Assembly (NCBI GenBank): GCA_047947115.1
Contig: CP170459.1
Span: 1,888,001 to 1,952,000 of the forward strand
Direction of reading: 5' to 3'
Length of the DNA: 64,000 nucleotides
DNA from: Verrucomicrobiota bacterium
GTDB lineage: Bacteria > Verrucomicrobiota > Verrucomicrobiia > Limisphaerales > AAA164-E04
Within the stretch, counting starts at the first letter, position 1. The number at the start of each line of letters is the position of its first letter. This document shows positions 1,841-53,185 of the stretch, one piece after another. The notes below the pieces were generated by a model. That model saw only the letters and a list, made by a program, of their open reading frames with translations, searched no databases and had not been told where the DNA came from. The translations under genes were made by a program, and so were the position numbers.

Positions 1841-2629
1841 TCACTTACGCACGGAACTCAGACGATCGATTTCCGCGATAATTTTCTCCAAATGATCTGT
1901 CACAAAAAAATGGCCTCCAGTAAAAGTTTTTACTTGAAAGCTGCTTCCAGTGTGTATCTTCCAGGCTTGTAGCATTTCGGTGGTTGCCTCTTCATCGCTC
2001 TCTCCGCCAAATGCCGTTATCGGACATGACAAGGGGGCCTCGTCCATATATTTGTATGTTTCATTAAGTGAAAAATCCGCCCGCAGACATGGCAAGAAGA
2101 GCTCCATTAACTGCTGGTTTTCCAGGACATCCGAAGGCGTGCCATCGAATCGTTTAAGTTCCTGGATGAGTTGTTGATCGGGGAGTTGGTAGATTGGTGG
2201 GTGGCGAAGCGGCAAGTGAGGAGCACTTTTAGCGCATACGAATAAGTGCTCTGGAGCCTTCTTTCCATGTTGCTGGAAGTGTCTCGCCACTTCAAAGGCA
2301 ATGAGCGCGCCCAAGCTGTATCCGAAAAAGTAAAAAGGCAAATCCAGTTGCTTTTCGAGTTCCTTGCTCAGCATGGGAACGAGTGTATCAAGATGATTAA
2401 TGGGTGGACTCGTGATCCGAAATTCGTGGCCGGGCAGGCTTATGATTTGAAGCTCTAGGGGTGAATTTCTCTTATCAAATGCCTCTGGCCATTGGCGAAA
2501 ACTTGATGGACCACCTCCCGCGTAAGGAAAACAGAACAAACGGCCTCTAGCGTTAGCTTTGGGATTGGGAGTGTAAAGCCAACTTTCTTTTAGCGAGGTT
2601 GTGGAGGATGTAATTCGAGTGGGTGGCAT
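1841..2629 (-). CDS. Type II (editing) thioesterase, GrsT/SrfAD-like
   Basis: RLFCFPYAGGG, GYSLG (GxSxG), LRADF and GGHFF motifs. Confidence 0.93.
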   Translation of the reverse strand: MPPTRITSSTTSLKESWLYTPNPKANARGRLFCFPYAGGGPSSFRQWPEAFDKRNSPLELQIISLPGHEFRITSPPINHLDTLVPMLSKELEKQLDLPFYFFGYSLGALIAFEVARHFQQHGKKAPEHLFVCAKSAPHLPLRHPPIYQLPDQQLIQELKRFDGTPSDVLENQQLMELFLPCLRADFSLNETYKYMDEAPLSCPITAFGGESDEEATTEMLQAWKIHTGSSFQVKTFTGGHFFVTDHLEKIIAEIDRLSSVRK

Positions 2630-2638
2630 TCTGTTAAA

Positions 2639-2869
2639 TTATGACCCTATGTATTTGGCAATGGCGTCAACGGAACAGAAGTTTGCCAGCTTTAAGTCAA
2701 CGTCCGGAACATCTCGATTGAATTCGTTCTCAACAAAGAGGACGAGTTGCATCGCAAACAAAGAATTTACCAGCCCCTTTTTGAAAATGTCTTCATCATC
2801 TGCCAAACCCGCGACCGAGATGTGTTGGCTTAAGAATTGGCGGATACGATCTTTGTGCTCCTGTTTCAT
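2639..2869 (-). CDS. Stand-alone ACP, FkbJ/ZmaD type (glyceryl/hydroxymalonyl carrier)
   Basis: 76 aa with GLVNSLFAMQLVLFVE; the NSL attachment motif is typical of FkbJ/ZmaD-type ACPs. Confidence 0.88.
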   Translation of the reverse strand: MKQEHKDRIRQFLSQHISVAGLADDEDIFKKGLVNSLFAMQLVLFVENEFNRDVPDVDLKLANFCSVDAIAKYIGS

Positions 2870-3139
2870 GACTCCTGATATTGATCCGTTGTTTAGTTCA
2901 CATACACTGCGGAGGAAGTAAAGCCGCTGGGCGCATCACTCCGTGGGGCGTGATCTTGCCGAAATTTGGGAGCTTATGCAAGGAAAGTTCGTTCCGATTG
3001 AGCGGGAGCCCAGGTGAAGGGACAGCGTAAAAGGAGGGGGGCTTTATTGGACTTGTGTCCGCCTCAAGGTATTTGGCAGCGGGTGAGCTATGAGGAACAT
3101 CAGTTTTTATACTCTACATGCTGACCGAGGTACGCATGT

Positions 3140-4291
3140 GTGGGGAGTTTTAACTTGCGTTCAAATACGGATCGAATAAGACTGTTACCTCGCAATTTGG
3201 CAAGCGTCATGAATCAAAACAATGACTATCGATTTGGCCACTCCGAACTCGTTTTTGGAGTGCTTATCCGACACGCTCAAATGATGGTCATTCCATTCGT
3301 TTGGGTGGTCTGCTTTTTCCTTACAACAGGAGCCTTTGCGGAGCCAACAGTGATTCTTAAAAGCAAAGATGGTCAGATTCTTAAAGGCGTCCTGATTGAT
3401 CGGGGGAAAGGTGTAATTAAGATTCATTCGGAGGTGTTTGGTCATGTTCAGGTCGAAGAAAGCAAAGTTAAAGTGCGCGATTGGCCGGAAGAGCAACCGG
3501 ATCCCCGTGGTGAAGAAAAAGGTTCTTTACCTGTTCCTCCTTTAACTGCCCCCGTATCCATCGACGAAGATACTCAGAAGGAGAAAACACGAAAATGGCT
3601 CGGTTTACCAAAGGACTTAAATGGCCAAATTGGAGTCGGATTAGGATTCATCGAGGGACATCAGACTAAATCGGAAAACTACTCCACATCGTTGCAGTTG
3701 GGATACGACCATGAACGTTATCATAACCAGATAAGGGGAGACTACCTATATAATAGGGTTAATGATCATCTTGTTAGCAACAACTATAATCTGATTGGTG
3801 AAACCTATCGCTACTTTGGTAGACCCAAGATAGGCCCCTACTATGCTCGATTGCTAGTAATGCATTCGCAGGATGAAGTTCAATTAGTCGACCGGCAAAG
3901 CGAAATCTTTTCGGGGCTGGGAAAGGACATTTACAAGTCCGCTAGTGCCACTTTTCGGGTGGATGCTGGCTATGTTTCGGAGTGGGAAGATTTTTCTCAT
4001 AATCCTGCCTTCGCCTTTTCCGATCCAGGGGTGGAACACCGTCACAAGATTTATCTGCATGAACAGGTTGATTTCCAATTGAACTCAAAATTTCAGATCC
4101 AACATGACGGTCTATTCATGATGGAGAGTAGTGATCAATTCGAAATACGCCTAAAGACTATGTTGAAATATAAGCTTTCAGATCATTTTTCCCTAAACCT
4201 TAATCACTCCTTCATTTTTGACGATACTAGCCCCGTTGGCGTGGATGAGGAATTATCTCAGACGAATCTCCAACTTTCTTACAATTTGTAA
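3140..4291 (+). CDS. Outer-membrane beta-barrel protein, DUF481/YdiY-like
   Basis: Signal-peptide-like segment (MMVIPFVWVVCFFLTTGAFA, so the real start may be ~3282), small N-terminal beta domain, Pro/Glu linker, amphipathic beta strands and C-terminal LQLSYNL. Confidence 0.7.
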   Translation: MGSFNLRSNTDRIRLLPRNLASVMNQNNDYRFGHSELVFGVLIRHAQMMVIPFVWVVCFFLTTGAFAEPTVILKSKDGQILKGVLIDRGKGVIKIHSEVFGHVQVEESKVKVRDWPEEQPDPRGEEKGSLPVPPLTAPVSIDEDTQKEKTRKWLGLPKDLNGQIGVGLGFIEGHQTKSENYSTSLQLGYDHERYHNQIRGDYLYNRVNDHLVSNNYNLIGETYRYFGRPKIGPYYARLLVMHSQDEVQLVDRQSEIFSGLGKDIYKSASATFRVDAGYVSEWEDFSHNPAFAFSDPGVEHRHKIYLHEQVDFQLNSKFQIQHDGLFMMESSDQFEIRLKTMLKYKLSDHFSLNLNHSFIFDDTSPVGVDEELSQTNLQLSYNL

Positions 4292-4590: not shown

Positions 4591-5313
4591 ATGCTAACGG
4601 TTGTGTTAGAGTCAATGTCTGGTGAGCGCGATCTGTCAAAGGAAAAGCAAGCTCAAAAGTTAATCAAAGACGGGGTTATTCTGTCGGTGGGCGGTGGTCT
4701 TCTGCCTGTTCCGATCCTCGATTTGATTGGTATAGCGGGGGGGCAGACCCTCATGCTGAGACAACTTTCCGAGTTATATAGAATTCCTTATTCACAACAC
4801 CGAGCAAAGAACATTATTGCGACTTTGATTGCGAGCTTGGGGACTGGCTACGTCGGAACAGGACTGGTTGCGAGTGTCGTCAAGACGGTGCCATTCGTGG
4901 GGAGCATGGCAGGGGTAGTCAGTTTGCCGATCATAGCCGGGGCATCGACGTATGCACTAGGAAAGGTATTTGTTCAACACTTTGAATCGGGTGGTACTTT
5001 CTTGGACTTCGAACCCGAGAAAACAAAGACTTATTTTGCGCGTCAATTCGCGGAGGGGAAGTTGGTTGTGGGAGAATACAAAGAACATTCTGCTTCGGTT
5101 ACGTGCGACAATAAGTCTGAAGAGGAATCCCTGAAAGGGACTTCCGTGTCTCAAGTGCACTCCTCTGGAGGCGATTCCAACTCTGCTGTCAGCTCCCATC
5201 AATCCGATGTGGATACACCTTCTCATCTCGTCGAGCCCCCTCATCCTTCCAAATCCAGTTCTTCGAGGAAACGATCCCCAAAAAAATCCAAAGGGAAATC
5301 GTCAAGTAATTGA
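4591..5313 (+). CDS. DUF697/YcjF-like membrane-associated protein with Ser/Lys-rich tail
   Basis: GLLPVPILD...Q..ML..LS.LY, K.VP.VGS and GASTYALGKVF..HFESGG motifs; low-complexity C-terminus. Confidence 0.75.
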   Translation: MLTVVLESMSGERDLSKEKQAQKLIKDGVILSVGGGLLPVPILDLIGIAGGQTLMLRQLSELYRIPYSQHRAKNIIATLIASLGTGYVGTGLVASVVKTVPFVGSMAGVVSLPIIAGASTYALGKVFVQHFESGGTFLDFEPEKTKTYFARQFAEGKLVVGEYKEHSASVTCDNKSEEESLKGTSVSQVHSSGGDSNSAVSSHQSDVDTPSHLVEPPHPSKSSSSRKRSPKKSKGKSSSN

Positions 5314-5381: not shown

Positions 5382-8300
5382 GTGAGCGATGTGAACATAC
5401 TCAAGAAGGCTTATATCACCCTCAAAGAAACCAAATCCGAACTAGCGCGGTTACGTGGCGAGCGGCATGAGCCGATAGCCATCATTGGCATGGCATGCCA
5501 GTTCCCTGGGGGTGTTGAAACTCTCGAGGATTACTGGTCCTTACTGGAGCGTGGAGGAGAAGGGATCTCTGACGTTCCGCCCGATCGATGGGCAAAGGGT
5601 GATTATTATGACACCAACGAAGACGCACCGGGGAAGATGTATACGAGGCGCGCCGGTTTTCTAGAGCGTGATGTTTATGGTTTCGATGCCGAGTTTTTCG
5701 GGCTAACCCCCAAGGAGGCGCGTGCGATGGATCCTCAACATCGACTATTTATCGAGGGATGTTGGCGCGCCATGGAGGATGCCGGGCTGGATGTATCCCA
5801 GTTAAAGGGAAGTCGGACCGGTGTTTTTGCCGGGATTTCCGGAATGGATTATGTTGCTGCCCACTTGCATTCTGGGGACTTGAATCTGGTGGATGCGTAT
5901 TCGGTGACTGGGATTGCGTTTAGCACTTTGACCGGAAGAGTATCCTATCTTTTTGGGTTCGAAGGTCCCTCAATGGCCGTAGATACGGCTTGCTCCTCCT
6001 CATTGGTGAGTTTGCATCTTGCTGTTCAAAGCTTGCGCCGCCGGGAATGCGACTTGGCCTTGGTTGGCGGCGTCAATTTAATCCTGAATCCCGAAATTCA
6101 CGTAGGGTTTTCAAAATTGAAGGGTCTCTCCCGGGATGGCCGTTGTAAGACATTTTCAAAGGATGCTGATGGTCATGGGAGAGGGGAAGGTGTTGGGGTT
6201 ATTGTTCTTAGAAGGCTATCGGATGCCCAGGATAAGCTCGATGCCGTGCGCGGAATCATTCGTGGTACGGCAGTGAATCAGGATGGACGCAGTGTCGGTT
6301 TTACAGCTCCGAACGGACGCTCCCAAGAACGCGTGATCCGCGAAGCATTACTTGATGGGCTAGTTTCGGCCGAGGAAGTCGCATACGTGGAAGCCCATGG
6401 AACGGGAACCCCTTTGGGGGATCCGATTGAAATGGATGCTTTGAATAGAACTTATTGCTCCAGTGTGAGCGGAAGGGGTGAGACGCCGTTGGTTGTGGGG
6501 TCTGTGAAGGCAAATATGGGGCACCTGGAGGCCGCCGCTGGCATTGCGGGCATCATCAAAAGTATTCTGATGCTGGAGCGACGCAGATTTGTCCCTCAAA
6601 TCAATATCTCGGCTCCGAATCCCCACATACCTTGGAGTGAAATGCCCATTCGCATCTCAGATCCGGCCATGAACTGGCAGACTCATGATGAAGGTGCCAC
6701 TTTGCTGTCCGCAGTGAGCGCCTTTGGGTTTAGCGGAACGAATGCACATATTATTCTTGAGAGTGCTCGTGCCGACTCGGGTGACAGCCTGGAGAGTGAA
6801 TCTGGGTTACTTGACAGGGATTGGGAAGTTGTGTGTTTAGCGGCGAAAAGCCGAAAGGCCCTTGCCTCGTTATCCCAGCGGCTGTCGGATCAAGTGGAAA
6901 GCGGCTCTTCTGAGGACGCCTCGTTGAAGGACTTGGCTTTTAGTTCTCGACATCGACGCACGATGCATCGGGTACGTTGCGCTGTGGCGGCGTCCACAAA
7001 AACTGAGCTTATTGAGGGATTAAGGCAGCGGGTTGGAGAGATCATGAAAATGGAATCTGTGGCTGGCGAGCTTGATTCAGAGAGTCGGCCCCAAATAGCG
7101 TTTCTCTTCACCGGCCAGGGCTCACAGTATTTCAGGATGGGGCGGGAATTGTATGAAGGTGTTCCGGTCTTTAGGGATGCGTTCGAACGTTGTGACCGAT
7201 GGCTTCGGGTTCATGCTAACCTGAGTGTGATTGAACTGGTGTATGAAGATGAGACGGAATCTTCCCTGCACCGGACCGCGAATACTCAACCCGTGATTTT
7301 CAGCATTGGTTATGCCTTGTCCGAGATGTGGCGTTATTGGGGGATTGAACCCGATGCGGTTTTGGGACATAGCATCGGAGAGTTCGTGGCAGCGTGCGTC
7401 GCTGGGGTCTTCTCTTTGGAAGACGCCTTATTAATGGTAGCGACGCGAGGAAGGCTCATTCAACAACTTCCAGAAGACGGTGCGATGGGAGTCGTTGTTG
7501 CGAATGCGAAAGCGGTGGCTGAAGTGATGGAGTCCGTTTCGGGATGCGTGACAATTGCTGCGGACAATGCTCCCGAGAATACAGTGATTTCAGGGGATGC
7601 TGCAGCGGTGGACCAGGTGCTCAAGCATTTTAAACGGAGGAATATTCCGGCCCGGAGATTAAGAATCTCTCATGCCATTCACTCACCCAAGATGGAGACC
7701 ATATTGGACGCTTTCGAAAAAGCGGTTGCTCAGGTGGCTTTTCATCCTCCCAGGTTGCCGATACATTCTAATGTCACGGGATGCCTGATAGGGGATGAAA
7801 TCGCCTCCGTCGCATATTGGCGAGAACAGATCGTTAAACCAGTTCGATTTCGTGAGGCGATTCAGCGGCTTCATGCATCGGGGTGTTCGGTTTTCCTTGA
7901 AATTGGTGGAGTGTCTACACTTTCCAGCCTTGGCGTACAGTGTTTACCCGGTTCGAAATGCACGTGGCTGCCCTCCTTGGGGGCCAATTCGTCGATGTTC
8001 AATATGCTTCCCAATCGAGAGGAGGGGCATTCCGATTGGAAATCTGTCATGACAACATTGGGCGCTCTTTTCACTCTTGGTTTGGATGTGCATTGGGCCA
8101 AAGTGGACGAAGGGCGATCGTTTTCCTTTGAGCGCCTCCCGGGGCACCCGTTTTTTCCAGTGCATTTTCGAGTGGATGCTCCGGTCCTCGCAATGCCTCA
8201 ACAGAGTGGTTTGGTGGATTCGGTTCGAGATGGACAGGTTGAACATCAAACCGAATCCAAGAGCGACGGAGGCGCGGCTCACTCCAATCCTCATAATGAC

Positions 8301-11300
8301 GAAATGGCGTTCATGAGGGAAGAAACCTGTTTAAACCTTGTCAAGCGGATGGTCCAGGAAGTGTCAGGGCTTTCCGAGTCCGCATTGACAGGAGAATTGA
8401 ATTGGTTGGAATTGGGCTTGGATTCTCTGATGATCGCTCGGCTCAGGGAACAGGCTTTGTCCGTCTTCCAGGTCGAAGTCGAAATGAGTGCGTTTTTTGA
8501 AGATGCCAGTACGCCTCGACGCTTGGCAGATTACTTGAAGTTACGAATGCCCGCGACTGCCAACAAGGAACCTTCGGTAGGTAGCCGGACGAATAGTAGT
8601 GGTTCCCTCGTCGGCGATGAAAATCGTTTCGAGCCTGGGGACGTTCCGGTCTCAAATGATCATTCAAAGATTAAGGACATTTTCGCCCAGCAACTCAAGA
8701 CTGTCCAGGATTTGATCGATCGCCAGCTTGACGTGTTAAGGCAGAGCGATACGTCTTCGGGAGGAGGGGCTGCCGCATTGCCTGACAGGGAAGCGCTTGA
8801 GCGGATGACTCGTTCCGCGAACGCTCGATCCATGGTGTTTGATAAGGATTCATTGACCACGGAACAGCAGGGCTTTCTGGAACGATTCATCCAGCGCTAC
8901 AACGCGAAAACCGCAAAATCGAAAACCTACACCCAGCAAAACCGACGAGTGTTCGTGGACTGGATCAATTCACTTGGCTTTCGCCGCACACTCAAGGAAC
9001 TGATTTATCCAATCGTTTCGGACGGATCGAAGGGGAGCAAAATCCGGGACATTGATGGGAATGAATACATTGATCTTGCTATTGGTTATGGGGTGAGTTT
9101 TTTTGGACATGGTTTTGAGCCGGTCGTCAACTCGGTCTGTGAACAAATGCAACGGGGTTATGATCTCGGGCCCCAGTCCAAAACGGCCGCGGATGTGGCA
9201 CGGCTCATTTCAAAGATTACGGGTGTCGAAAGGGTGGCCTTTGGTAATACCGGTTCCGAAGCCGTGATGATTGCCCTGCGACTGGCACGGACGGTGACGC
9301 AAAAGAATCACGTGGTCATGTTTGCCGGCTCGTATCATGGGATATCCGATGGCGCCCTTGCGCTACCCGCCCTAAATGGGAGAAGCGCGCCCTCGGCATT
9401 CGGCATTCCGCCCGAAATGGTGCATAACGTGACCGTGCTTCCATACGGAACGCAGGAAGCGATTGAGGCCATCGAATCGATGGCAGGGCAGCTGGCGGCC
9501 GTTTTGGTGGAGCCTGTTCAAAGTCGAAGACCTGGATTTCAGCCCCGAGAGTTCCTGCATCAAGTAAGAAAGATCACCGAAGAGAATGGAGTGATACTCA
9601 TCTTCGATGAAATGCTAACAGGTTTTCGAATTCAGCCGGATGGTGCACAGGGATATTTTGGAGTGCAAGCCGATCTGGTGACTTACGGCAAAGTGGTTGG
9701 CGGTGGATTTCCAATCGGAGTGGTCGCGGGCAAGGCCGAGGTCATGGATGCTGTTGACGGAGGTCCGTGGGAATATGGAGACGATTCCATACCAGACAAG
9801 GATGTCACTTTTTTTGCGGGCACCTTCTGCAAGCACCCTGTTACGATGGCCGCCGCCTACGCAGTGCTGAATCACATCGATACATTGGGGGCCGAACCAT
9901 ACATGGCTTTGCGTGAACGATCCCAAGCATTCGTGGATCGGCTCAATACTTTTTTTACAAGTGAGCGGCTCCCCTTCGAAGCGAATTGTTTTGGTCCGAT
10001 GTTTCGCTTGGAAGCTGCGGGACGATACCATCTGATGCTGCAGCCCCTGGAGTTGGATTTGCTATTCTACCTGCTCATGGAGAAGGGGGTCTATACTTGG
10101 GAAAGACGGATCTGCAGCTGGTCCTTTGCGCATACGCAAGCTGATTTTGAAGCGGTCTATCAGGCGATTGTCGATTCCGTCGCCGAGTTGCGTTCGGGAG
10201 GTTTCAAACTTGAAATTTCCTCCAAGGAGTCGGGGGCCACGCCAATGATTGATGGGACGGTTAATCCGTCGAACCAAAACCTCGCATTGACCTCGTTGCC
10301 AGCTTCCGCTGCCCAACGGCGCATTCACGCGCTGGATCATTTGGAGGATTCGGATTCCGAACCGCAGGCTTATCAGATGCAGGCTGGCTATTGGATTTCC
10401 GGAGAGATTGATTTCGAACGCATGGCTTGGGTGATCCAGGAAATTGGACGTCGGCACGAAGCCCTTAGAACGCGTTTTTATTTTGAGGACGGTCAATTGT
10501 GGCAGCGTATCGACGAGAGTGTTCCATTTCATTTGGAGAGAAAAGAGAGTGAAAGTCTTTCGCCTCAGGATTGGATTAACAAGTTTCGAGAGCGATTTCA
10601 TCTTGAGTCCGGCGGCCTGTTTCGAGCCTGGATCGTCGATTTCACGGAATCGAGAAACCAACACCTCCTGCTTTTGGGGAGCCACCATATCGTCATCGAC
10701 GGGATTTCATGGAATTTGATTGGCCAGGAATTTGCTGCGATTTACGCGGGGCAGTCACTGCCGTATCCGTCTCATCAGTACCAAGACTTTTGCATTCGGA
10801 TGAACGACCGCGCCGTCTCGGAGCAGGCTGAAAGGAGTCGTCAGTTTTGGGGGGAGCAATTTGCCGGTGAAGTGCCCGTCCTGGATTTGCCGACCGATTT
10901 TGTTCGCCCGCGTGAGAGGAGTTCCCAAGGCGGATCCGTTCATGTTACGGTGCCTGAGGAAACGGTCGCGAACCTGCGGGCCTTGGGGCGGAAGGAGGGA
11001 TTGTCAATGTTTATGATTCTCTTCGGTGGTTTCAATCTGTTGCTTCATCGATTGACCGGTCAGACGGATTTGGTGGTGGGGACGCCGGTGGGAGGACGTC
11101 CATCCATGGATTTCGATCGAACTGTCGGGATGTTTGCTAATACCTTGGCGATTCGAACCGGAGTGGATCCTGAAAACACGGTTCTCGGTTACTTGCGGCA
11201 TGTTAGGAGTGTGATGGCAAAGGCGGGGGATCACCAAGATTATCCGTTGGAACTACTATCCTCCGAATTGAATCTGGAGCGCGATCCCAGCCGGAGCGGT

Positions 11301-32547: not shown

Positions 32548-32633
32548 TGCAAATTGAGCTAATACATTTCGGAATGTGAAACACTTAGCGCCCGCAACTT
32601 TCCTGAAAACTGGGAGGACCATTTCTGGGAAGC

Positions 32634-43629: not shown

Positions 43630-43807
43630 TAGGCTTGATCGCGTTGCGTTGCATGCCGTCTGGTTCGTGGTGTTCTGCGGACACAACGTTACTCATAAAA
43701 GAACCGATGCTTTGAGATTGCGGTGATACTTAGGATTGTTTACAAAAGGAGTCAGAAAATGGCCCTGTTGCCGTTGCTTTTATGGCCAACGGGATACGAT
43801 ACCAATA

Positions 43808-45466
43808 ATGGAATTTCTTAAATACCTTCGCCGAGAGTCCGAGGACTTCAATGCCAACTTGATCCTTGTTGGCGTATTCGCGGGCGTCGTTAACCTCATC
43901 TTGATCATTGTGTTGACCCTTGCGGCTTCCAAGGCTGCAACAACGCGGCCGGATGGCACGAGTCTGGCGCTTACCGCGCTTTGCATCGCAGCTTTTTGGT
44001 TTAGCAAGAAGTATCTCCTGACTAGAGCAACCATTATTGTTGAAGAGATCATTGGCAAAGTCCGACGTAGGATAGTATCCAAGATCAGGGAAACGGATTT
44101 GGCCTCTTTTGAAAATACGGGTCCGGAAGCATTTATCAATGCCGTGTCGATACATGCGAACACACTTTCGCAGGCGTCCATCCACGTCATCCATAATTCC
44201 CACGCGGTTGTCATGGTTCTGCTGGCCTTCGGATTCATTTATTATCTCTCGCAGCCAGGCTTCTGGATCGTGACAAGTGTACTGGGCGTTCTGGTTTGGG
44301 CTTTTTTTCGCAATCGTACCCCGTTGAACAAGGCTTTGAGGAAAATAGCGCACACAGAAAACGAATTCATGCGCGGCTTTGCTGATTTAACGGATGGATT
44401 CAAAGAATTGAAAATGGACACCAAGCGTGACCGGGAGTTTATAGAAGATTTTCTTCACGGACTGATCGAACGGTGCATGGATCTGAAGAAGCGGACAAGC
44501 CACATGATTAACCACAATCTCCTTATCGCTCACTCAGCACTTTTTTTTCTGCTCAGCGCGGTCGTTTTTATCCTGCCTTCCTTTGGAGAGCAGGAAGCCG
44601 CCAGCGTCGTTCCCGTTGCCGCGGTTGTGATTTTTATTTTTGCGCCAGTCTCCGACTTGGTAGGAGCCATTCCGTTTCTTGCCCATGCTGGTGCTTCCGT
44701 TGAAGAGTTGGAACGTATCGAAAATGTTCTCAATGCCATCCGCAAGGAGGATGCCTCAGTGATGAACGGCAACGATGGACTTGTCGAGGAGGAGTTCTCC
44801 AAGCTTGAGATGAAGCAAATCAAATTTCATTACCAGGACAAGTCGACCGATGAAACTTTCACTCTCGGCCCAGTCGACTTTGAACTGAACAAAGGAGAGT
44901 TGGTTTTCATGATCGGTGGCAACGGCAGTGGTAAGTCGACTTTTCTAAAATTGCTTACCGGCCTTTACCAACCGGATTCGGGTGTTATCGAAGTAAATGG
45001 GCGTAGGCTGGGGAATAAGCAGATCCGCGGATATCGTAATCTCATGTCGCCCATTTTTTCGGATTTTCACCTATTCAACCAGCTCTTTGGAATCAATCCT
45101 GTTGAATCAGAAAAAGCGGAACGGTATATCGAATGGCTTGAATTGACCGGGAAAACCAAAATTAAGAATAAGTCGATTGCCAATTTGAGTCTCTCAGCCG
45201 GACAACGTAAACGAGTGGCGCTCTTGGTGTCTTTGTTCGAGGACAAACCGATTCTGGTATTTGACGAATGGGCTGCGGAGCAAGATCCGGAGTTTCGTAA
45301 AAAGTTTTATCTGGAGATTATTCCGGAGTTTCGCAGAGCCGGTAAAACCATTTTCGCTATTACTCATGACGAGCACTTCTTTCACACTGCAGACAGAATC
45401 GTCAAAATGGATTACGGCCAGATTAGCGAGATCAGCTCTGGTAAAGCCAAACGACCAATGGGTTAA
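43808..45466 (+). CDS. Cyclic-peptide export ABC transporter, SyrD/YojI/PvdE family
   Basis: N-terminal TM domain, GFKELK, Walker A GGNGSGKST, IFSDFHLF, LSAGQRKR, FDEWAAEQDPEFR. ATG at 43808 preferred. Confidence 0.93.
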   Translation: MEFLKYLRRESEDFNANLILVGVFAGVVNLILIIVLTLAASKAATTRPDGTSLALTALCIAAFWFSKKYLLTRATIIVEEIIGKVRRRIVSKIRETDLASFENTGPEAFINAVSIHANTLSQASIHVIHNSHAVVMVLLAFGFIYYLSQPGFWIVTSVLGVLVWAFFRNRTPLNKALRKIAHTENEFMRGFADLTDGFKELKMDTKRDREFIEDFLHGLIERCMDLKKRTSHMINHNLLIAHSALFFLLSAVVFILPSFGEQEAASVVPVAAVVIFIFAPVSDLVGAIPFLAHAGASVEELERIENVLNAIRKEDASVMNGNDGLVEEEFSKLEMKQIKFHYQDKSTDETFTLGPVDFELNKGELVFMIGGNGSGKSTFLKLLTGLYQPDSGVIEVNGRRLGNKQIRGYRNLMSPIFSDFHLFNQLFGINPVESEKAERYIEWLELTGKTKIKNKSIANLSLSAGQRKRVALLVSLFEDKPILVFDEWAAEQDPEFRKKFYLEIIPEFRRAGKTIFAITHDEHFFHTADRIVKMDYGQISEISSGKAKRPMG

Positions 45467-45650: not shown

Positions 45651-45681
45651 GAAACAAGCGCAAAAGCGCATCCTGTAATGC

Positions 45682-45873
45682 TTAATTCGATGTAGAAGAA
45701 CTTGCCCGCGTTTCTTCCATACGTTGCTCGAAAGCTATCGCAAGCAAGCCGAGCACGGGGGATAACAAAAGACTCAAGATAAAATTGCCCCAGAATTTAA
45801 GGGTCCGATCCTTGCCGATGTAAGCGACCAGGAGGCAAATAACCGTGTATGTTAATAGAAGCATTGGGTTCAT
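45682..45873 (-). CDS. Small two-helix membrane protein
   Basis: Two hydrophobic segments flanking GKDRTLKFWG, then SLLLSP; start 45873 or 45864 is more plausible than 45939. Confidence 0.6.
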   Translation of the reverse strand: MNPMLLLTYTVICLLVAYIGKDRTLKFWGNFILSLLLSPVLGLLAIAFEQRMEETRASSSTSN

Positions 45874-46330
45874 ATTTCGAATGTTGTGTTGTTTGACGTT
45901 ATAAATATTATTGCGGATCAGACGATATTTTCTCATCACTGCAAAGCAGCCTTTAAATCACCATCCACGTTAAGACGATAAAATATATCCAATTCTTATG
46001 CAAGATGAAAATCCCGCAATTCCAAATCACCCATTATACTCAATCACAGAAGGATGCAAAAACTTGTCCAAGGAAATGAGGGATCATCTTAAGGAACTTT
46101 TTTTAACCTCAATAAGCCGTCCGAAAGTTTGCCTTTTTCCTTAGCCCAATTTCTGTCGCCCGTTCGGAACGATTTTGGACTTAGGGCTTATTACATCGGG
46201 AGGTATCATATTGCACTAATACGCAATAACCGCCTCGCTTCGTGCTTGCCTGTTTAGAAATGTTCGAACACACTGGCCTCGCAGTGTTTGTTGAAACAGA
46301 AGGAGGTGCGCTTTGCTATCCAAACATGTC

Positions 46331-47401
46331 ATGAACCAGGAAAATGAATCTCAGAAAGAGATAAAATGCGTCATATGGGATCTCGACAATACCATTTGGG
46401 ATGGAACCCTGCTTGAGCCCGAGCCAGTGGTATTGAAGGAGGGAGTGACCGAAATATTGGAGGAGCTTGATCGCCGGGGGATCCTTTTGTCTATCGCCAG
46501 CAAAAACAACCATAAAGCTGCCATTCAGCAGCTTCAAACCTTCAAATTGGATCACTTTTTCTTAACCCCGGAGATTGGTTGGAATGCGAAATCCTCATCG
46601 ATAAGTCGCATCGGAGAGGTCCTCAATCTTGGCCTTGATACATTTCTGTTTATTGACGACCAACCGTTCGAACTCGCCGAAGTTTCATCAGCCCACCCGG
46701 AAGTGCGTTGTTTCCACGCCGAATCGATCGATGATCTATTGGCTCGAAGGGATCTGAATCCACGTTTTATTACGGGGGAAAGCAGCCGAAGACGAAGCCT
46801 CTACCGAGAGCAACTCAATCGACGGACTGCGGAACGGGAATACGTCGGTCCAAAAGATTCGTTTTTGGCCTCTCTTGGCATGGTATTCTCGATCCGTCGT
46901 GCAAAGGAAGCGGACTTGCGAAGAGCCGAAGAGTTGACGGTCCGCACTAATCAAATGAATGCTACGGGGCGCACCTACAACTACGATGAGTTGAAGGTGC
47001 TGAGCAATTGCCCTCAACACCTTTTGCTTATATGCTCGCTTAAAGACCGGTTTGGAGATCATGGTTACATCGGTCTAGCCTTGATTCAACGCCAGGAGCG
47101 GGCGTTCCTGCTTAAACTACTCTTGATGTCTTGCCGCGTAATGTCCCACGGCGTTGGTTCCGTTTTGCTGACATATGTCATGCACCTTGCGAAAAAACAT
47201 GCCCAAGAACTGATGGCTGAGTTCGTTCCTACACAAAGAAACCGGATGATGAAGATTACCTATCACTTCGCCGGATTCAATGTGCTGAGTGAGTTGGATG
47301 GCGTTCAGATTCTCAAGCATGATCTCGAAGCCATTCCGCTTTATCCGAACTATATCGAATTGCATGGACCTCAAGACATGAACAGCGCACACTTCCAGTA
47401 A
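46331..47401 (+). CDS. fkbH: Stand-alone FkbH/ZmaN-like glyceryl transferase/phosphatase (HAD-IIIC)
   Basis: WDLDNTIW (DxDxT), SIASKN, FIDD, RTNQMN, DRFGDHG, LLMSCRV. Confidence 0.93.
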   Translation: MNQENESQKEIKCVIWDLDNTIWDGTLLEPEPVVLKEGVTEILEELDRRGILLSIASKNNHKAAIQQLQTFKLDHFFLTPEIGWNAKSSSISRIGEVLNLGLDTFLFIDDQPFELAEVSSAHPEVRCFHAESIDDLLARRDLNPRFITGESSRRRSLYREQLNRRTAEREYVGPKDSFLASLGMVFSIRRAKEADLRRAEELTVRTNQMNATGRTYNYDELKVLSNCPQHLLLICSLKDRFGDHGYIGLALIQRQERAFLLKLLLMSCRVMSHGVGSVLLTYVMHLAKKHAQELMAEFVPTQRNRMMKITYHFAGFNVLSELDGVQILKHDLEAIPLYPNYIELHGPQDMNSAHFQ

Positions 47402-47414
47402 CAAGCCAACAAGT

Positions 47415-48284
47415 ATGAGTGACATGACTCCAATCAAAACAATCGGAATCGTCGGTGCGGGAACGATGGGGGTGGGAATTGCCGTTGATGCCATGCTGCA
47501 CGAGCTAAAGGCGATCATTGTGGACAAAGAGCCTGCACAACTTGAGAGGGCTCGAGCCGAGATTGCAAAAGGCGTTAGATTTGCGCCCATGATGAAGACG
47601 GGGATCCCGCGAGTTCACAGTGACCATTCCGACAAGGGGCTTTCCTTTTCAACCGATTTAGGGATGCTCGCCGAATGCGATTTTATTGTTGAGAACGTGA
47701 GTGAGCACCTCGAAACCAAACAGGAAGTTCATCGATCACTGGATCATATATGCCCGCCACAAATCTGTTTTGGAATAAATACTTCGTGTTTGCCAATCAC
47801 CCGGATAGCCGCAGTCACCAAGCGTCCCGACAAGCTTGTTGGGATGCATTTCATGAATCCTGTCTTCCTGAAGCCTGTTGTCGAGGTCATGAAGGGATTT
47901 CATACTTCAACGGAGACGCTTGATCAAGTAGCCGCTTTTCTTGGGCTTCTTGAGAAGGAGGCGGTGATCGTCCAAGACCTTCCAGGATTTGTGTCCAACC
48001 GCGTTTCACATCTTCTCATGAATGAGGCTATGTGGGTAGTGCAGGATCAGGTAGCAAGCGCCGAGCAGGTGGATCGGATCTTCAAGCAGTGTTTTGGTCA
48101 TGCAATGGGCCCCTTGGAGACAGCCGACCTGATTGGGTTGGATGTTGTTCGCGATTCTCTCAACGTGCTATATGAAAGCTTCCAGGATTCGAAATTCCGT
48201 TGTTGTCCCCTGTTGCAGCAAAAAGTCGATGCCGGAGAGCTTGGGCGTAAATCAGGTCAGGGTTTTTTCAGTTACACCAACTAA
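47415..48284 (+). CDS. 3-hydroxyacyl-ACP/CoA dehydrogenase, FkbK/ZmaG-like
   Basis: GAGTMG, NTSC, GMHFMNP, PGFVSNR, MGPLETADLIGLD; follows fkbH. Confidence 0.9.
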   Translation: MSDMTPIKTIGIVGAGTMGVGIAVDAMLHELKAIIVDKEPAQLERARAEIAKGVRFAPMMKTGIPRVHSDHSDKGLSFSTDLGMLAECDFIVENVSEHLETKQEVHRSLDHICPPQICFGINTSCLPITRIAAVTKRPDKLVGMHFMNPVFLKPVVEVMKGFHTSTETLDQVAAFLGLLEKEAVIVQDLPGFVSNRVSHLLMNEAMWVVQDQVASAEQVDRIFKQCFGHAMGPLETADLIGLDVVRDSLNVLYESFQDSKFRCCPLLQQKVDAGELGRKSGQGFFSYTN

Positions 48285-48298
48285 CCAAAACAATTTCC

Positions 48299-49474
48299 AT
48301 GCAAGCACAACTTACGCCTGAAGAGATTGAATCATATGAAGAATACAAGAAATTTGCGCGCGAATATGTTTCTAAAAAAGCCCTGAACTGGGAACATCAA
48401 CGGGGATTCGATAATGAAATCATTGATGCATGTCGCAGGAAGGGATTTCTTGCTGGGACACTATCCAAGGAGAACGGCGGATTGGGATGGACCGCGTGCC
48501 AATTTGGATTTTTCACCGAAGCCATCGCCCGCCACAGCCCGTCTCTTTCTTCTCTTTTCAATGTGCATACGATGGTCCTTCAATCCTTGCTTCGGTGGGG
48601 GAGTGACCAACAAAAATCGGAACTCCTTCCCGAGTTGGCCAGCGGTCGGAAGCTTGGCGCCATTTGTTTTACCGAACCGAATGCTGGCAGCGATCTCGAG
48701 GGAATCAAAACCACATTCGTCGAGGTGGGCGATATGATCGAGGTCTCGGGCTCAAAAAAGTGGATCACTTGCGGGGCGATTGCAGACGTCTTCATCGTGT
48801 TTGGACGTCTGGGGGACAAGCCTGTGGCGATCCTGATCGACAAGGATACCCCTGGAATAAAGATCAATCCTGCCCCCGAAATGCTGGGATTCCGAGCTGC
48901 ACACCTTGCTAATATCCAATTGAACGGTTGTATGGTTCATAAGGACAATTTGTTTGGGCATCCTGGGACGGCTTTTCGGTTCATGGCTCCCTATGCGCTC
49001 GATTGGGGAAGGTTGAGCGTTACGTGGGCCTGCGTTGGAATGTTACGTGCGTGCGTTGAAGAAACGGCAGAATTCGTGCTTCGTCGAGAGTCATTCGGTC
49101 ATGCTCTCATCGAACACGGCAGCGTACGTTCGCTGTTCACAGAATTGGCGATTCAATACGACGCGGCTCTCCTCCTGACGCTTCAGGCCACTCGTTTGAA
49201 AGACGCGCAAGTTGCCCATGCATCAAATGACATTCTCACGGCCAAGTATTTTTCCTCAAGGGCGATTGCTGGCCAGGCTGCCACGGCGGTGCAACTGTTT
49301 GGCGCACGCGGATGCGAAGAGACTGGCCCTGTTGCTCGCTTCTACCGTGATGCCAAAATAATGGAAATCATCGAAGGAAGTACGCAGATTTCCGAAATTT
49401 TGCTCGCTAAGCGTTATGCTATCCGACACAACAATACCAAAAAACGGGAAATCGAAACAATGGGACAAAACTGA
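48299..49474 (+). CDS. Acyl-ACP/CoA dehydrogenase, FkbI/ZmaE-like
   Basis: TEPNAGSD, GSKKWIT, Q.FGA.G, YRDAKIMEIIEGSTQI. Confidence 0.9.
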   Translation: MQAQLTPEEIESYEEYKKFAREYVSKKALNWEHQRGFDNEIIDACRRKGFLAGTLSKENGGLGWTACQFGFFTEAIARHSPSLSSLFNVHTMVLQSLLRWGSDQQKSELLPELASGRKLGAICFTEPNAGSDLEGIKTTFVEVGDMIEVSGSKKWITCGAIADVFIVFGRLGDKPVAILIDKDTPGIKINPAPEMLGFRAAHLANIQLNGCMVHKDNLFGHPGTAFRFMAPYALDWGRLSVTWACVGMLRACVEETAEFVLRRESFGHALIEHGSVRSLFTELAIQYDAALLLTLQATRLKDAQVAHASNDILTAKYFSSRAIAGQAATAVQLFGARGCEETGPVARFYRDAKIMEIIEGSTQISEILLAKRYAIRHNNTKKREIETMGQN

Positions 49475-49635: not shown

Positions 49636-50382
49636 ATGAACCTCGCCCATCCGGCAAGTACACAGACGCAATATCAACGGATCGAACTAAGCTATGGCGA
49701 GGATCGTTATGTCGCCCACCTCGTCAGCTTGGCTAAACCTGCATATGATTCCCTGAAGTCTGAACAGGCTCAGTGGCTCCACCCTGAAGAATTGGCCTAT
49801 GTGAAGCAACTGGGTGTTAGTGAAATTCGCAAACGGAGCTACCTGTTGGGTAGGGTGGCAGCCAAGTCCGCTCTCAACCAATACCTAGGCCTCGAAAAAC
49901 TCACAGACTTTCGCATACTACCGGGTATTCTGATGGATCCCATTGTCTATCACCCAATGGCGGTGCCTTGGCAGGTATCCATCACGCATTCCAATACGAT
50001 GGCCTGTTCAGTGGCATTTCCATCCAAACTTCCCATGGCAATCGATCTGGAAGATCATTGTCCGAAGAATGCCAAGGCGATTCAAAGCAAATGCACGCAC
50101 GGAGAGATGGTCATGATACGCGAACTCGGCTTTTCGGCTGAGCAGGCTTGGACAGTCCTTTGGACCGCAAAGGAAGCCCTTTCAAAGGCCATTCGAACCG
50201 GTTTGACCTGTCCGTTTCACCTATTCGAAGTGAAGGCCGTGAGGCGGTTCTCCGAGGAGATCATTACGGGAGAATTTCAATATTTCGATCAATACCAATT
50301 CCGCACATGGCTCGTCGGACGGCACTTTTTATCTCTCATCTTTCCGGTGGGGACTCAGTTGGACTTGAAAACTATTCAATAA
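49636..50382 (+). CDS. Sfp-type 4'-phosphopantetheinyl transferase
   Basis: LHPEE, SYLLGR.AAK, VSITHS, AIDLE, WTAKEALSK. Confidence 0.9.
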   Translation: MNLAHPASTQTQYQRIELSYGEDRYVAHLVSLAKPAYDSLKSEQAQWLHPEELAYVKQLGVSEIRKRSYLLGRVAAKSALNQYLGLEKLTDFRILPGILMDPIVYHPMAVPWQVSITHSNTMACSVAFPSKLPMAIDLEDHCPKNAKAIQSKCTHGEMVMIRELGFSAEQAWTVLWTAKEALSKAIRTGLTCPFHLFEVKAVRRFSEEIITGEFQYFDQYQFRTWLVGRHFLSLIFPVGTQLDLKTIQ

Positions 50383-50545
50383 GGAATGGATTCCTGGATG
50401 GGGGAACGTACGTTAAAAAAATTCGATTGATGCGCGCGTGTGCATCAGTTGTGGGCAATTTCGGCTTCGATGTTGGTGTTGCAAGGAAGGATTCAATTCG
50501 GAAAGCTGGAGTCAGAATTTTTTGTTGCTATGATGGTGAAGTCCG

Positions 50546-52105
50546 ATGATTGTTGGCGTAATGAGTTCACTCCTCCTTGAATTGCTCGGAAAGTTCGCGC
50601 CTAGCTCTGACACGATTTTGTGCGGCCGGAAGCTTAGCGGCTGGACAAAGATCTTAAGTTACGGGAGCCTTATCTGCCTCTCGGTGGGTTGCTACAATCG
50701 TCAGGAGGTAGAAAACCATGAACATTCCGGTTCTCGATTGGACCTTCGTGGACGGGAGGAAGTCATACTAGAGCATCTAGGCTCTCAATACGACAAGAAG
50801 CAAGAACCGCCCGAAGGGAAAACTCCGATTAGGTTACTGGTTCAAGCTGGTTTGCTGGATGGGTTGCCAGCTAAAGACGGGGAACCTTTCCCGCCACGGG
50901 CCGCCGCTCTGGATCGGTTTCAATCCTTTTATGGGGTGGACGTGGATGTTACGCAGGTAACGGAAGCGGATCTTGTCGACGGTCAGTTGACCGAGGAGTT
51001 GCTTGGCGAACATGAATTGATTCTCGTTCCCTCTTATTGGCTTGTATCGGCCAAGGATCAGCGTCGACTTCTTCCTCTTGAAGAGGCGAACATAGAAGGT
51101 CTCAAGTTGATACTAGAAGATTTTGTAAACATCTTTTCTCCGATTCCTCCAAGTGTTGACTTGAATTATTTATTGCCTTACATGCGATTATCCTACGGTA
51201 TTTACTACAATCAGGCCCATCTTTCCACTCCTCCATCGACTTGGGAACAATGTTTTTTGCTTATCGAGGATAGCCGCTTTTGGGATGCCGTTTATTTTTT
51301 GAATGATCCGGAAATTACCTTGAGCATTGCCGCCATCCTGGTAGCTAATTTGGATGAAAGTAGGCAGGCTAAACTGGCCACTACAACGGAGGAATTAGCG
51401 GCGAGATTCCGCGATTTTGGGAGTGGTTTCACATTGCCGGCCATCGATTCGCTTCGGACAGAATGTGTGGATTGGTTCAGTTCAAAAGGAGAGCGGATGA
51501 ACCACGTCAGATTGGAAATGCATCAGAGTGTATTTAAGGAGCATCATGCAGATCAGGATTTGGGATTGCATCAGTACGTCCGCACATTATCAGAAAAAGA
51601 ATTGGATCTAGCTGTTCGATTAATTCAATTGGCACTCGTTTTCGGGGCCGATTTTAGAGGAAATATGGAAAATCCTGTCGACTCAGTGCTTAAGAAATGG
51701 GCGATGATTGTCAGTGCTTCGGGAGACTTGATCCCCAAGGATAATCATTATGCGGATATTCATTACGTGATCCCAGAAGAGGGATCGCTCATTTTGATTG
51801 ATACGTTCGCCATTCCTGCTGGATTATCGGAAGAACGGCTGCATCATGCTTCCAAATTGTTAAACTTTATGTTGCTAAAGCCTGTGGCGGCCAGTGTGAC
51901 CACTTATTCCTCCAGGGCAAGTCTGATTCCCGGATCATCGGCATTTGTGCCATCTGAATTGATCAACTCCCCAATTTATACGCTCCCTTCGCGTGATCGA
52001 ATGCATTTCTTGCCATTTTTTTCACCCGAGCTTATGTCGAGAAAATGGGAACAAATCACTTCTTTTCAGCAAACCCTTCAGTCAGGGATGGGGGTCGCTC
52101 AGTGA
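50546..52105 (+). CDS. Extracytoplasmic solute-binding protein, PotD/PotF-like, with insertion
   Basis: Possible lipobox LSVGC; PY....GIYYN, P.TW and YVIPEEGS....D.FAIP motifs; unusually long; start uncertain. Confidence 0.6.
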   Translation: MIVGVMSSLLLELLGKFAPSSDTILCGRKLSGWTKILSYGSLICLSVGCYNRQEVENHEHSGSRLDLRGREEVILEHLGSQYDKKQEPPEGKTPIRLLVQAGLLDGLPAKDGEPFPPRAAALDRFQSFYGVDVDVTQVTEADLVDGQLTEELLGEHELILVPSYWLVSAKDQRRLLPLEEANIEGLKLILEDFVNIFSPIPPSVDLNYLLPYMRLSYGIYYNQAHLSTPPSTWEQCFLLIEDSRFWDAVYFLNDPEITLSIAAILVANLDESRQAKLATTTEELAARFRDFGSGFTLPAIDSLRTECVDWFSSKGERMNHVRLEMHQSVFKEHHADQDLGLHQYVRTLSEKELDLAVRLIQLALVFGADFRGNMENPVDSVLKKWAMIVSASGDLIPKDNHYADIHYVIPEEGSLILIDTFAIPAGLSEERLHHASKLLNFMLLKPVAASVTTYSSRASLIPGSSAFVPSELINSPIYTLPSRDRMHFLPFFSPELMSRKWEQITSFQQTLQSGMGVAQ

Positions 52106-53185
52106 TGGTGGTTCGGGCATCAGATCATGCAGGAGCGGCATGGCCCGGAAAACCTCAGTAGCTTGCTGAATCTGATCGTCGAGCAAAGCGGGGTCAGTCA
52201 TTTGAAATCGTGATGCTGTGGATGCATCACGGGGAGGCCCTAGCTGATTAGATGCGGCTAGTTGGCGATTTGTATTCGAAAGTGAATCAGGAAGATTCAG
52301 GATGAGCGGTAATCCTTTTTCTCCGCCGACCACCACGACCTTGGCGTTTTCCGAAGTGGCCAGAGCCAAGGTTGCTTGGATACCGAGGAAGGTCAGGTAG
52401 TCATGGAATGAGCTTCCCTGACCTTCTTCGATGAGTGTTTGGAACTTTTGGATGCCTTCTGCTTCAATCTTCTTGCGCAACGCTTCTTGTTCTTCGCGAC
52501 GGATTCTGAATTCATATTCCAGGAATGCTTGTTCTTGTTTGAGCTTGTTTTCGATTGCCGTTTGCAAACTTCTTGGAAGCTCGATTTTTGTCAGCAGAAG
52601 GTCGTCCAAAACAACCAGTTTTTCCTCCAATTCAGGCGCGGCGGCCTCAACCACTCGCCGAACGAGAAGGCCTTGAGAGCGGTATATTTCGTCGGGAGTG
52701 TACTGCCCGAACAGGTAGCGGAGTTTCCCGATGATTTCTGGAACTACCACTTTTTTCGCGTAGTCTGGGCCTAAGTTAACGTGCAACTGAGGTAAAGTTT
52801 CCTTCCTAGGGCGAAAACGAATGGAAACTTGAACTTTTAAACTAAGACCATCCTTTGCAAGAACACTAAAATCCTCCAGCACTTGTTGGACGCGCACGTC
52901 GTATCTCGTCATTTTGTCCCAAGGAAAAATTGTCGTAAGCCCTTCCTTATATCGATAGCGCAGATCCGTGCCACCGAAAAAACGGCGATAAAGGACTCCG
53001 TTCTCACCAGGCTGAATGAAGATGAATATTTGCTGCCAATAGTAGATGGTAAATCCTGAGAGAATGAAGAGACAGATTAAGATCCGTGGTCCCCATTTAT
53101 CAGAAAATCGTACGTAGCGGTCCGTAGCTTTCTTCTTTCGAGAAGAAGGATCGGTTCCCTGCGATTGTTCTCCAGTTTCAGCCAT
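52082..53185 (-). CDS. SPFH/prohibitin-family membrane protein
   Basis: N-terminal TM helix, I.PGE.GVLYRRF.G, EG.....PWD....YDVR, coiled coil AIENKL.QEQ...EA.RK.IEAEGI; 3' end overlaps the convergent gene by 24 nt. Confidence 0.88.
   Translation of the reverse strand: MAETGEQSQGTDPSSRKKKATDRYVRFSDKWGPRILICLFILSGFTIYYWQQIFIFIQPGENGVLYRRFFGGTDLRYRYKEGLTTIFPWDKMTRYDVRVQQVLEDFSVLAKDGLSLKVQVSIRFRPRKETLPQLHVNLGPDYAKKVVVPEIIGKLRYLFGQYTPDEIYRSQGLLVRRVVEAAAPELEEKLVVLDDLLLTKIELPRSLQTAIENKLKQEQAFLEYEFRIRREEQEALRKKIEAEGIQKFQTLIEEGQGSSFHDYLTFLGIQATLALATSENAKVVVVGGEKGLPLILNLPDSLSNTNRQLAASNQLGPPRDASTASRFQMTDPALLDDQIQQATEVFRAMPLLHDLMPEPPSLSDPHP

Follow-up and report, generated by a model that had tools for sequence, protein, structure and literature searches.

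A PKS-NRPS island of Verrucomicrobiota with a cystomanamide-like design and a predicted new aryl head group

The window analysed here, a stretch of 64,000 nucleotides on contig CP170459.1 of a Verrucomicrobiota bacterium, holds a polyketide synthase-nonribosomal peptide synthetase (PKS-NRPS) cluster that is real and intact. Judged from sequence comparison, its design is the one known from cystomanamide and its aryl head would be new. We give an even chance to the proposal that the assembly line makes a linear depsipeptide, aryl-beta-amino-acyl-D-His-L-Thr-D-(allo)Ile-O-glyceroyl-D-Tyr, from which a secreted D-peptidase removes the ester-linked tail after export. Only a few pathways of Verrucomicrobiota have been assigned to a family of compounds. 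The present one is found in two genera of one bacterial family, is intact and appears mobile at a tRNA-Asn gene.

Gene content and module order

The window is part of a single-contig genome of 6.08 Mb that is 95.8% complete. Gene parts were called from a listing of open reading frames (ORFs) together with family scans of the window, and all the PKS-NRPS parts named in the original prediction were found in this way; the domain order it had proposed, with three epimerases, was borne out by the scans and by motif checks. An orthologous whole cluster is present in one of the 21 other genomes of the same GTDB family (G018, of another genus); its synthases are 54-63% identical to those of the window, its accessory genes 51-80% and its DUF481 protein 31%. 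The biosynthetic genes are listed below (A, adenylation; ACP and T, carrier; AT, acyltransferase; C, condensation; DH, dehydratase; E, epimerase; KR, ketoreductase; KS, ketosynthase; MT, methyltransferase; TE, thioesterase; PBP, penicillin-binding protein).

5382..14879 (+): PKS-NRPS, KS-AT(GHSIG/HAIH)-ACP-aminotransferase-C-A(His-like)-T-E, from family scans, motifs and A code
14872..22653 (+): NRPS, C-A(Thr)-T-C-A(Ile)-T-E, from family scans, A codes and motifs
22685..30787 (+): terminal NRPS, DCL-type C-FkbH-T-C-A(Tyr)-T-E, without TE; homologue of Cystobacter fuscus AID65225.1
30928..32547 (+): serine peptidase of the class C PBP fold (SxxK, YxN, HxG) whose start resembles a signal peptide; alkaline D-peptidase is the solved structure nearest to it
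32634..43629 (+): starter PKS of ~3639 aa, keto-acid-type A, dead KR, Tyr-type O-MT, T, KS-AT(HAFH)-DH-KR-ACP, split by two assembly errors
43736..45466 (+): cyclic-peptide export ABC transporter (TIGR01194 above cut-off; 32% to the ABC half of ZmaM, 80% to G018)
46313..49474 (+): extender cassette, FkbH/ZmaN-like, FkbK/ZmaG-like (3-hydroxyacyl dehydrogenase) and acyl-CoA dehydrogenase-like (FkbI-like) genes (57%, 58% and 32-44% to Zma proteins)
1841..2629 (-): stand-alone type II-like TE, the sole TE of the cluster (PF00975; 63% to the G018 orthologue)
2639..2869 (-): small ZmaD/ZmaH/FkbJ-type ACP of 76 aa (34-42% to ZmaD/ZmaH, 76% to G018)

Catalytic motifs are intact in both KS and both AT domains, in the DH, in the five C domains, in the embedded FkbH and in the aminotransferase domain of the KS-AT-ACP module, which has its pyridoxal-phosphate lysine motif; the three E domains all carry their His, E4 and E5 motifs. 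The starter gene is read in the window as three ORFs, owing to two single-base frameshifts in G runs at about 34019 and 37427. One extra G was found at both sites in all three DNA runs examined (three studies), and an unbroken 3639-aa starter protein, P0127, is present in the database; thus, the breaks in the starter gene are assembly errors. The G018 orthologue is a single frame of 3632 aa. A search of the ESM Atlas with a piece of the starter gave no usable match. The original prediction had described the cluster without these frameshifts, and equally without an island boundary or a role for the secreted D-peptidase.

The four amino-acid A domains have the codes DMALVAEVWK, DFWNIGMVHK, DGFFLGVTFK and DASTIAAVCK, obtained by alignment with positions anchored on the motifs of the window's Thr domain and not on GrsA itself, and all four are identical in the G018 orthologue. 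We read these codes as His-like, Thr, Ile and Tyr. The earlier hand-read series of a His-like residue, Thr, Ile, glycerate and Tyr therefore holds under the alignment-based codes.

The design itself had been said to match nothing known, which is wrong: the five NRPS modules stand in cystomanamide order (PMC9581180, in its accessible text), and the terminal protein is 35% identical to AID65225.1. The cystomanamide line runs (C-A-PCP-E)(C-C-A-PCP)(C-A-PCP-E)(C-FkbH-PCP)(C-A-PCP-E-TE) and extends a 3-amino fatty acid by Asn-Asn-Phe-glyceric acid-Tyr; glyceric acid and Tyr are present in congener B and missing from congener A, and the accessible text reports no antimicrobial activity (PMC9581180). 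The role of FkbH in this pathway is covered in PMC8949500. The ctm cluster of Cystobacter fuscus and the window share the NRPS order D, L, D, glycerate (C-FkbH-T), Tyr with an E domain, the terminal C-FkbH-T-C-A(Tyr)-T-E protein, and the beta-amino acyl head, judged here from the aminotransferase domain. In contrast, cystomanamide starts on the fatty-acyl unit 3-amino-9-methyldecanoate, whereas the window has an StsA/McyG-type A domain, a dead KR and an O-MT, giving an aryl-polyketide head; its core is Asn/OH-Asn/OH-Phe where the window codes are His-like/Thr/Ile; and it has a terminal TE, which the terminal protein of the window lacks. A hydroxymalonyl-type cassette, a secreted D-peptidase and a Verrucomicrobiota host further set the window apart. 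The cluster would thus seem to work like the cystomanamide pathway without being a strict member, since starter, residues and release differ. The claim that no compound matches has stood: within the main texts of the open-access literature, papers on Pedosphaerales biosynthetic gene clusters included, we found no product matching the cluster and no work on it.

The aryl head group and its extender units

The starter A domain has StsA, which takes a keto acid, and McyG as its nearest solved relatives. It carries both marks of keto-acid A domains described in the accessible part of PMC11253843, a hydrophobic residue (Ile) at 235 instead of Asp and Gly-Met in the A5 motif. The KR that follows is dead: the nucleotide-binding glycines and YxxxN that mark an active KR in the StsA-type loading module are lacking, and YxxxN is absent from all 14 A-KR-MT proteins (two have the Tyr, in a poorly aligned stretch), while it is kept in five of the seven MT-less A-KR proteins aligned. 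The MT has a PRMT-like fold and a GxGxxA motif, which is given as a mark of type III Ms(O,Tyr) methyltransferases in the accessible text of PMC8341866. In a comparison that drew on 42 metagenome loci of the MT family, the NRPS A domains bearing this MT had the exact Tyr code in 12 of 23 cases and were one residue off in five more, so that 17/23 (15/21 without duplicates) lie within one residue of it. The starter MTs formed a 100/99 clade nested among Tyr-module MTs, in a tree built without the characterised ThxA2, DidJ and VatN. Elsewhere in the phylum the MT was detected at E<=1e-40 in 3 of 400 other genomes, each time as a short stand-alone frame (31-39%). An arginine N-methyltransferase, as the PRMT-like fold and an acidic residue in the A pocket might suggest, was considered and rejected, since the family sits in Tyr-code A domains and no basic-residue code known to us is seen among the 23 MT-bearing A domains.

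Altogether, the keto-acid-type A domain, the dead KR and the Tyr-type O-methyltransferase indicate that the starter is probably p-methoxyphenyl. The methylated keto- or hydroxy-acid starter of the original prediction is thereby narrowed, its keto-acid A domain and its methylation both being retained. On this basis the A domain likely loads 4-hydroxyphenyl-pyruvate or -lactate, the O-MT would convert it to the p-methoxyphenyl unit, and the precedents of microsclerodermin and McyG make it probable that a carbon is dropped. The KS-AT-DH-KR module would then add malonate and leave an alkene, as read from its domains, and the KS-AT-ACP-aminotransferase module would add a second unit to give a 3-amino acid. 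We lean towards a 2-hydroxy group on that unit, which would arise if the HAIH-type AT takes hydroxymalonyl-ACP from the cassette.

The same logic is found in microsclerodermin, whose head is assembled from phenylalanine-derived phenylacetate, malonate and hydroxymalonate with an aminotransferase (PMC6163206, accessible text). The aryl starter, the malonate and hydroxymalonate units and the aminotransferase leading to an aryl beta-amino acid would be shared, a likeness of logic and not of alignment, but the msc pathway has a longer iterative chain, a monooxygenase, another, cyclic peptide and TE release. Applied to the window, microsclerodermin logic suggests a starter shortened by one carbon, so that the finished unit would be 3-amino-2-hydroxy-6-(4-methoxyphenyl)hexenoyl. 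The cyanobacterial Athmu, Atpoa and Ahoa residues, McyG and puwainaphycin/microginin likewise combine a keto- or aryl-acid A start with KS-AT-ACP-aminotransferase; as far as the accessible text of PMC13252402 goes, they make the 2-hydroxy group by a monooxygenase, and Athmu has an active loading KR. In contrast, the window cluster has no monooxygenase domain for a 2-hydroxy group, its loading KR is dead, and an O-MT is inserted. The predicted p-methoxyphenyl beta-amino(-alpha-hydroxy) acid would be new. Bestatin and microginin, which inhibit aminopeptidases, carry motifs of the beta-amino-alpha-hydroxy acid class.

The gene set for hydroxymalonyl-ACP (FkbH, dehydrogenase, acyl-CoA dehydrogenase and ACP) is complete in the window and in G018, without an O-MT, a seryl-AMP ligase or a ZmaJ-like gene; the ACP lies far from the other three genes. 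The FkbH and 3-hydroxyacyl dehydrogenase genes resemble those of zwittermicin (ZmaN-like, 57%; ZmaG-like, 58%). We infer hydroxymalonyl use from this cassette, which is complete in both genomes, has a ZmaN-like FkbH but no ZmaJ, and has no other plausible customer. Two observations speak against it. The second AT reads GHSIG/HAIH in both genomes, a malonyl-type GHS, as opposed to the GYSFG/GAAH signature of ZmaA, and the 2-hydroxy group may therefore be absent. Moreover, the cassette ACP and acyl-CoA dehydrogenase have their higher identities on the aminomalonyl side (42% to ZmaH and 44% to ZmaI), as against 34% and 32% to ZmaD and ZmaE. The earlier claim that a hydroxymalonyl unit is transaminated to a beta-amino acid thus stands for the aminotransferase module and is weakened for the hydroxymalonyl unit, for which the cassette speaks and the AT does not.

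Starter genes of this type, followed by different downstream genes, are also present in Niveispirillum, Rhodospirillum and Methylobacter tundripaludum. More broadly, proteins of ~3,600 aa with the order A(keto acid)-dead KR-O-MT-T-KS-AT-DH-KR-ACP, whose pocket hardly varies, form a family that is spread over Alphaproteobacteria, Methylobacter tundripaludum and metagenomes (loci L026, L027, L029-L035 and L042-L045; proteins P0128-P0139), and its genes often stand beside amidohydrolase, TE and MbtH genes. We know of no product of this recurring aryl-methoxy starter family. Beside related starter genes of other loci (L029:3606-5057, L030:1307-4757) there are likewise DUF697, DUF481, SPFH and ABC genes, so that these odd accessory genes travel with this type of pathway.

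The glycerate-tyrosine end and the secreted peptidase

Downstream of the head, three modules are predicted to add a D-His-like residue, L-Thr and D-Ile, the codes and E domains being observed and the substrates read from them. The terminal protein would then load glycerate, esterify one of its hydroxyls with D-Ile and cap it with D-Tyr, a chemistry taken from cystomanamide. This protein is collinear over its full length with C. fuscus AID65225.1 (P0380; DCL-FkbH-T-C-A(Tyr)-T-E-TE), at 35% over 2716 columns; organism and architecture suggest that AID65225.1 is the ctm terminal gene product. Relatives were collected by a search of 1.84 billion representatives, of which 150 were listed, and FkbH-T-C-A was found in 67 of these, preceded by a DCL-type C domain in 20, by an LCL-type in 34 and by no C directly before FkbH in 13. 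A Tyr-code module follows in 15 of the 20 DCL-type proteins listed, a count biased by the query and by shared ancestry, as against 3 of the 34 LCL-type proteins by the threshold used, two of these three with Phe-like codes. All 15 Tyr-tail representatives, among which Cystobacter, Magnetococcales, Desulfuromonadales and Cloacimonetes are the named sources, stop after the Tyr module: 11 end in T-E, two in T-E-TE and two in T plus ~240 residues. The window protein has 37 residues after its E domain and no TE. In the FkbH tree the Tyr-tail label needs 5 changes compared with 16 when shuffled, which makes these proteins clustered without forming one clean clade, and they look like a loose family and not like independent origins. 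These sequences predict a conserved cassette, joined to different peptides, in which glycerate is esterified with a D-residue and capped by Tyr, and the odd glycerate-Tyr end of cystomanamide B would be an instance of it, conserved across phyla.

Two variations were seen in passing. A second, small family of DCL-FkbH-T-C-A-T terminal proteins (P0117, P0401, P0424) has the constant code DAKNAGIDIK, so that another residue perhaps caps the glycerate. The NRPS proteins P0003, P0121 and P0355 carry two FkbH modules, in tandem in a Cellvibrio metagenome-assembled genome, and two glycerate units per chain are predicted for them.

The peptidase gene sits between the terminal NRPS and the starter gene, and its product has a signal-peptide-like start in both genomes, as judged by eye. 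Within the GTDB family it is found in 2 of 22 genomes, exactly the two that have the cluster with its aminotransferase module. Its best solved match is the alkaline D-peptidase of Bacillus cereus DF4-B (PDB 4y7p, E 5.8e-39), and the match to the SurE-type entry 6ksu is far weaker (E 1.2e-14). The class C PBP fold, SxxK, YxN and HxG, and a D-residue at P1 are common to alkaline D-peptidase, to the PBP-type thioesterases SurE, PenA and Ulm16 and to the window peptidase, but the latter differs by its signal-peptide-like start, an extra N-terminal domain, the lack of a recognised lipocalin domain and its position inside a biosynthetic operon. Alkaline D-peptidase is described, in the accessible text of PMC4570186, as an endopeptidase whose P1 or acyl-donor site calls for a hydrophobic D-residue. 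The bond that best fits such an enzyme here would be D-Ile-O-glycerate, whose cleavage would yield an analogue of cystomanamide A.

With no terminal TE on the line, we propose that the stand-alone TE releases the chain, the ABC transporter exports it, and the periplasmic class C PBP-fold peptidase then cuts after D-Ile to leave a beta-amino(-alpha-hydroxy)acyl tripeptide. Peptidase and exporter resemble the two halves of ZmaM (29% and 32%), which joins a PBP-fold peptidase and a cyclic-peptide ABC exporter in one protein, whereas the window has separate genes. The ClbP/ZmaM prodrug system also differs in its starting C-A(Asn)-T-E module, which is absent here, none of the four amino-acid A domains having an Asn code. 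Without an N-acyl-D-Asn start module, a pro-moiety would have to sit at the C-terminus, held by an ester. Of the roles considered for the ester-linked tail, that of such a removable pro-moiety is the most likely; that of a group displaced when a ring is closed outside the cytoplasm is less so.

Should the full-length depsipeptide with its glyceroyl-D-Tyr end be the final product, the secreted D-peptidase would serve self-protection or turnover. This we rate as rather unlikely, although cystomanamide B was isolated with its tail on (PMC9581180), D-stereospecific peptidases have been described as degraders of nonribosomal peptides, and the peptidase has widespread relatives whose N-terminal domains are different. 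The existence of the tail-less cystomanamide A (PMC9581180) stands against it, as does the Tyr code, which is constant in 15 families at 50% identity while the upstream residues vary, as in a handle and not a variable pharmacophore.

The leaving-group function, which we hold to be improbable, would have the PBP-fold enzyme form an acyl-enzyme at D-Ile from the glycerate ester and close a ring after export, either onto the beta-amine, giving a 13-membered cyclic tetrapeptide, or onto the Thr hydroxyl. PBP-type cyclases use a C-terminal D-residue, accept ethylene-glycol oxo-esters and in some cases close tetrapeptides (PMC11735501, accessible text); here, in line with that, the DCL-type C domain makes D-Ile the ester donor, and the exporter is of the cyclic-peptide ABC family. 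The enzyme is nevertheless much nearer to alkaline D-peptidase than to 6ksu, Pfam finds no domain after the catalytic one, so that the C-terminal lipocalin-like domain of SurE is not recognised, and the cystomanamides described in the accessible text of PMC9581180 are all linear. SurE-type unloading of carrier-bound chains was weighed as well: the three motifs and an NRPS that ends in E without a TE agree with it, but the signal-peptide-like N-terminus does not fit access to the cytoplasm, and the peptidase, if secreted, cannot unload a cytoplasmic carrier as SurE does.

Release could, finally, take place without the peptidase, an unrecognised cytoplasmic step by the stand-alone TE or the terminal E domain cyclising the whole chain through D-Tyr. 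A terminal E without a TE, here and in 11 of the 15 Tyr-tail representatives, calls for release in trans, and the stand-alone TE is conserved in G018. We consider this quite improbable all the same, since the TE, which has PF00975 as its one domain and is 30% identical to that of zwittermicin, resembles a common type II editing enzyme, and the known family member is linear.

Several observations weigh against the proposed pathway of an aryl depsipeptide unmasked by the peptidase. Six of the 23 MT-bearing A domains have other codes than Tyr or its near variants; the His label corresponds to a match at eight of ten positions with a His code; and the link between tail and peptidase is seen in two genomes. 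Relatives with other N-terminal domains being common, the peptidase may have a general role as a secreted D-peptidase, or one in resistance. The pairing of the tail with a dedicated secreted D-peptidase nevertheless makes the function of the tail testable.

A broader idea, which we put forward as a speculation with the chances against it, is that glyceroyl-(D-)Tyr is a general, as yet unnamed C-terminal handle of nonribosomal peptides, the D-residue ester being a portable activated group that is unmasked or macrocyclised outside the cytoplasm by a secreted PBP-fold enzyme. Such a handle would do at the C-terminus, by way of an ester, what N-acyl-D-Asn does in the known prodrug strategy, and it would be nature's equivalent of the ethylene glycol that chemists use as a leaving group with SurE, spanning myxobacteria, Verrucomicrobia, Magnetococcales, Desulfuromonadales and Cloacimonetes.

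Host, genomic island and flanking genes

A host from the Planctomycetes-Verrucomicrobia-Chlamydiae (PVC) superphylum had been predicted, and this is confirmed as Verrucomicrobiota, order Limisphaerales. G018, with the orthologous cluster, is of the same family, and locus L003, titled Limisphaerales, carries a protein that is the same as in the window. When the FkbH-T region was scanned against genome contigs, one of 11 loci was a true orthologue. The stretch 32000-40000 is present in 20 of the 24 runs listed, from 10 studies of marsh, estuary, aquatic, seawater and urban samples; 6 of the 20 are RNA runs. In metatranscriptome X15, contigs cover 27 of 30 bins, which, without a silent-stretch control, we do not take as transcription.

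The remaining features of the island and its edges are as follows.

3..1376 (+): IS1380 transposase, inside the left end of the island
3140..4291 (+): DUF481 protein; the G018 cluster, too, has a homologue (31%) at its flank
4591..5313 (+): DUF697 protein, immediately preceding the first synthase gene in both genomes
49636..50382 (+): phosphopantetheinyl transferase, from family scan
50546..52105 (+): solute-binding-like protein (51% to its G018 cluster counterpart)
52082..53185 (-): SPFH/Band 7 protein (71% to its G018 cluster counterpart)
53987..54061 (-): tRNA-Asn, whose 3' end is the right island boundary

With the window phosphopantetheinyl transferase as query, no match was obtained in G018. 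For a hydrophobic 85-aa ORF between the ABC exporter and FkbH (45682-45939, -), the G018 region likewise gave no match.

The 3' end of tRNA-Asn is repeated over 22 bp, with one mismatch and in direct orientation, at G000:C1:1886858-1886879, 1.1 kb to the left of the window. The genome has no other copy of this repeat at <=3 mismatches, and the two copies enclose a 55-kb island. In all seven congeners, similarity to the tRNA/microcompartment region begins exactly at the tRNA-Asn end. The left-flank genes, which are 78-90 kb from the tRNA here, were sought in six congener regions: they lie within 9-15 kb in two, were not seen within 16.6 kb in G002, and three further regions are too short. In G018 the SPFH and TE genes, which form the two ends of the cluster in the window, are adjacent, and this fits a cluster that moved as a circle. 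No integrase was seen inside the island by ORF and family scans.

The original prediction had named a chimeric assembly at the tRNA boundary as what would refute it. We judge a chimeric origin unlikely because of the orthologous cluster in a genome of the same family and the tRNA-Asn repeat that bounds the island. Taken together, it is hardly credible that the cluster consists of pseudogenes in decay, or that it is a chimera of the assembly and does not belong to the verrucomicrobial host: the two starter-gene frameshifts, the atypical tetranucleotide make-up of the island (its distance ranks 4th against 110 windows) and the fact that no independent contig across the tRNA boundary was seen would fit it, but the extra G in all three DNA runs, the intact P0127, the intact cluster of G018 and the unique tRNA 3'-end copy closing the island 55 kb away all argue the other way.

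On the right, the window continues into a microcompartment locus of the Planctomycetes-Verrucomicrobia type (54165-64000) with DeoR, phosphate propanoyltransferase, kinase, shell vertex proteins, aldehyde dehydrogenase, aldolase and LDH genes. This locus belongs to the core genome and adjoins tRNA-Asn in 7/7 congeners. On the left, 0.3 kb outside the window, a 165-aa ORF (G000:C1:1887209-1887706, -) is presumably PIN-domain-like. Together with a short ORF downstream it stands just inside the att-like repeat, and the two may be a toxin-antitoxin pair that stabilises the island. Beyond it, the stretch G000:C1:1864000-1887000 has a lower GC content and ORFs that by eye resemble IS21 and integrase-type remnants, and one gene left of the island is duplicated, at 1866425 and 1884477, which suggests an older insertion hotspot at the same tRNA.

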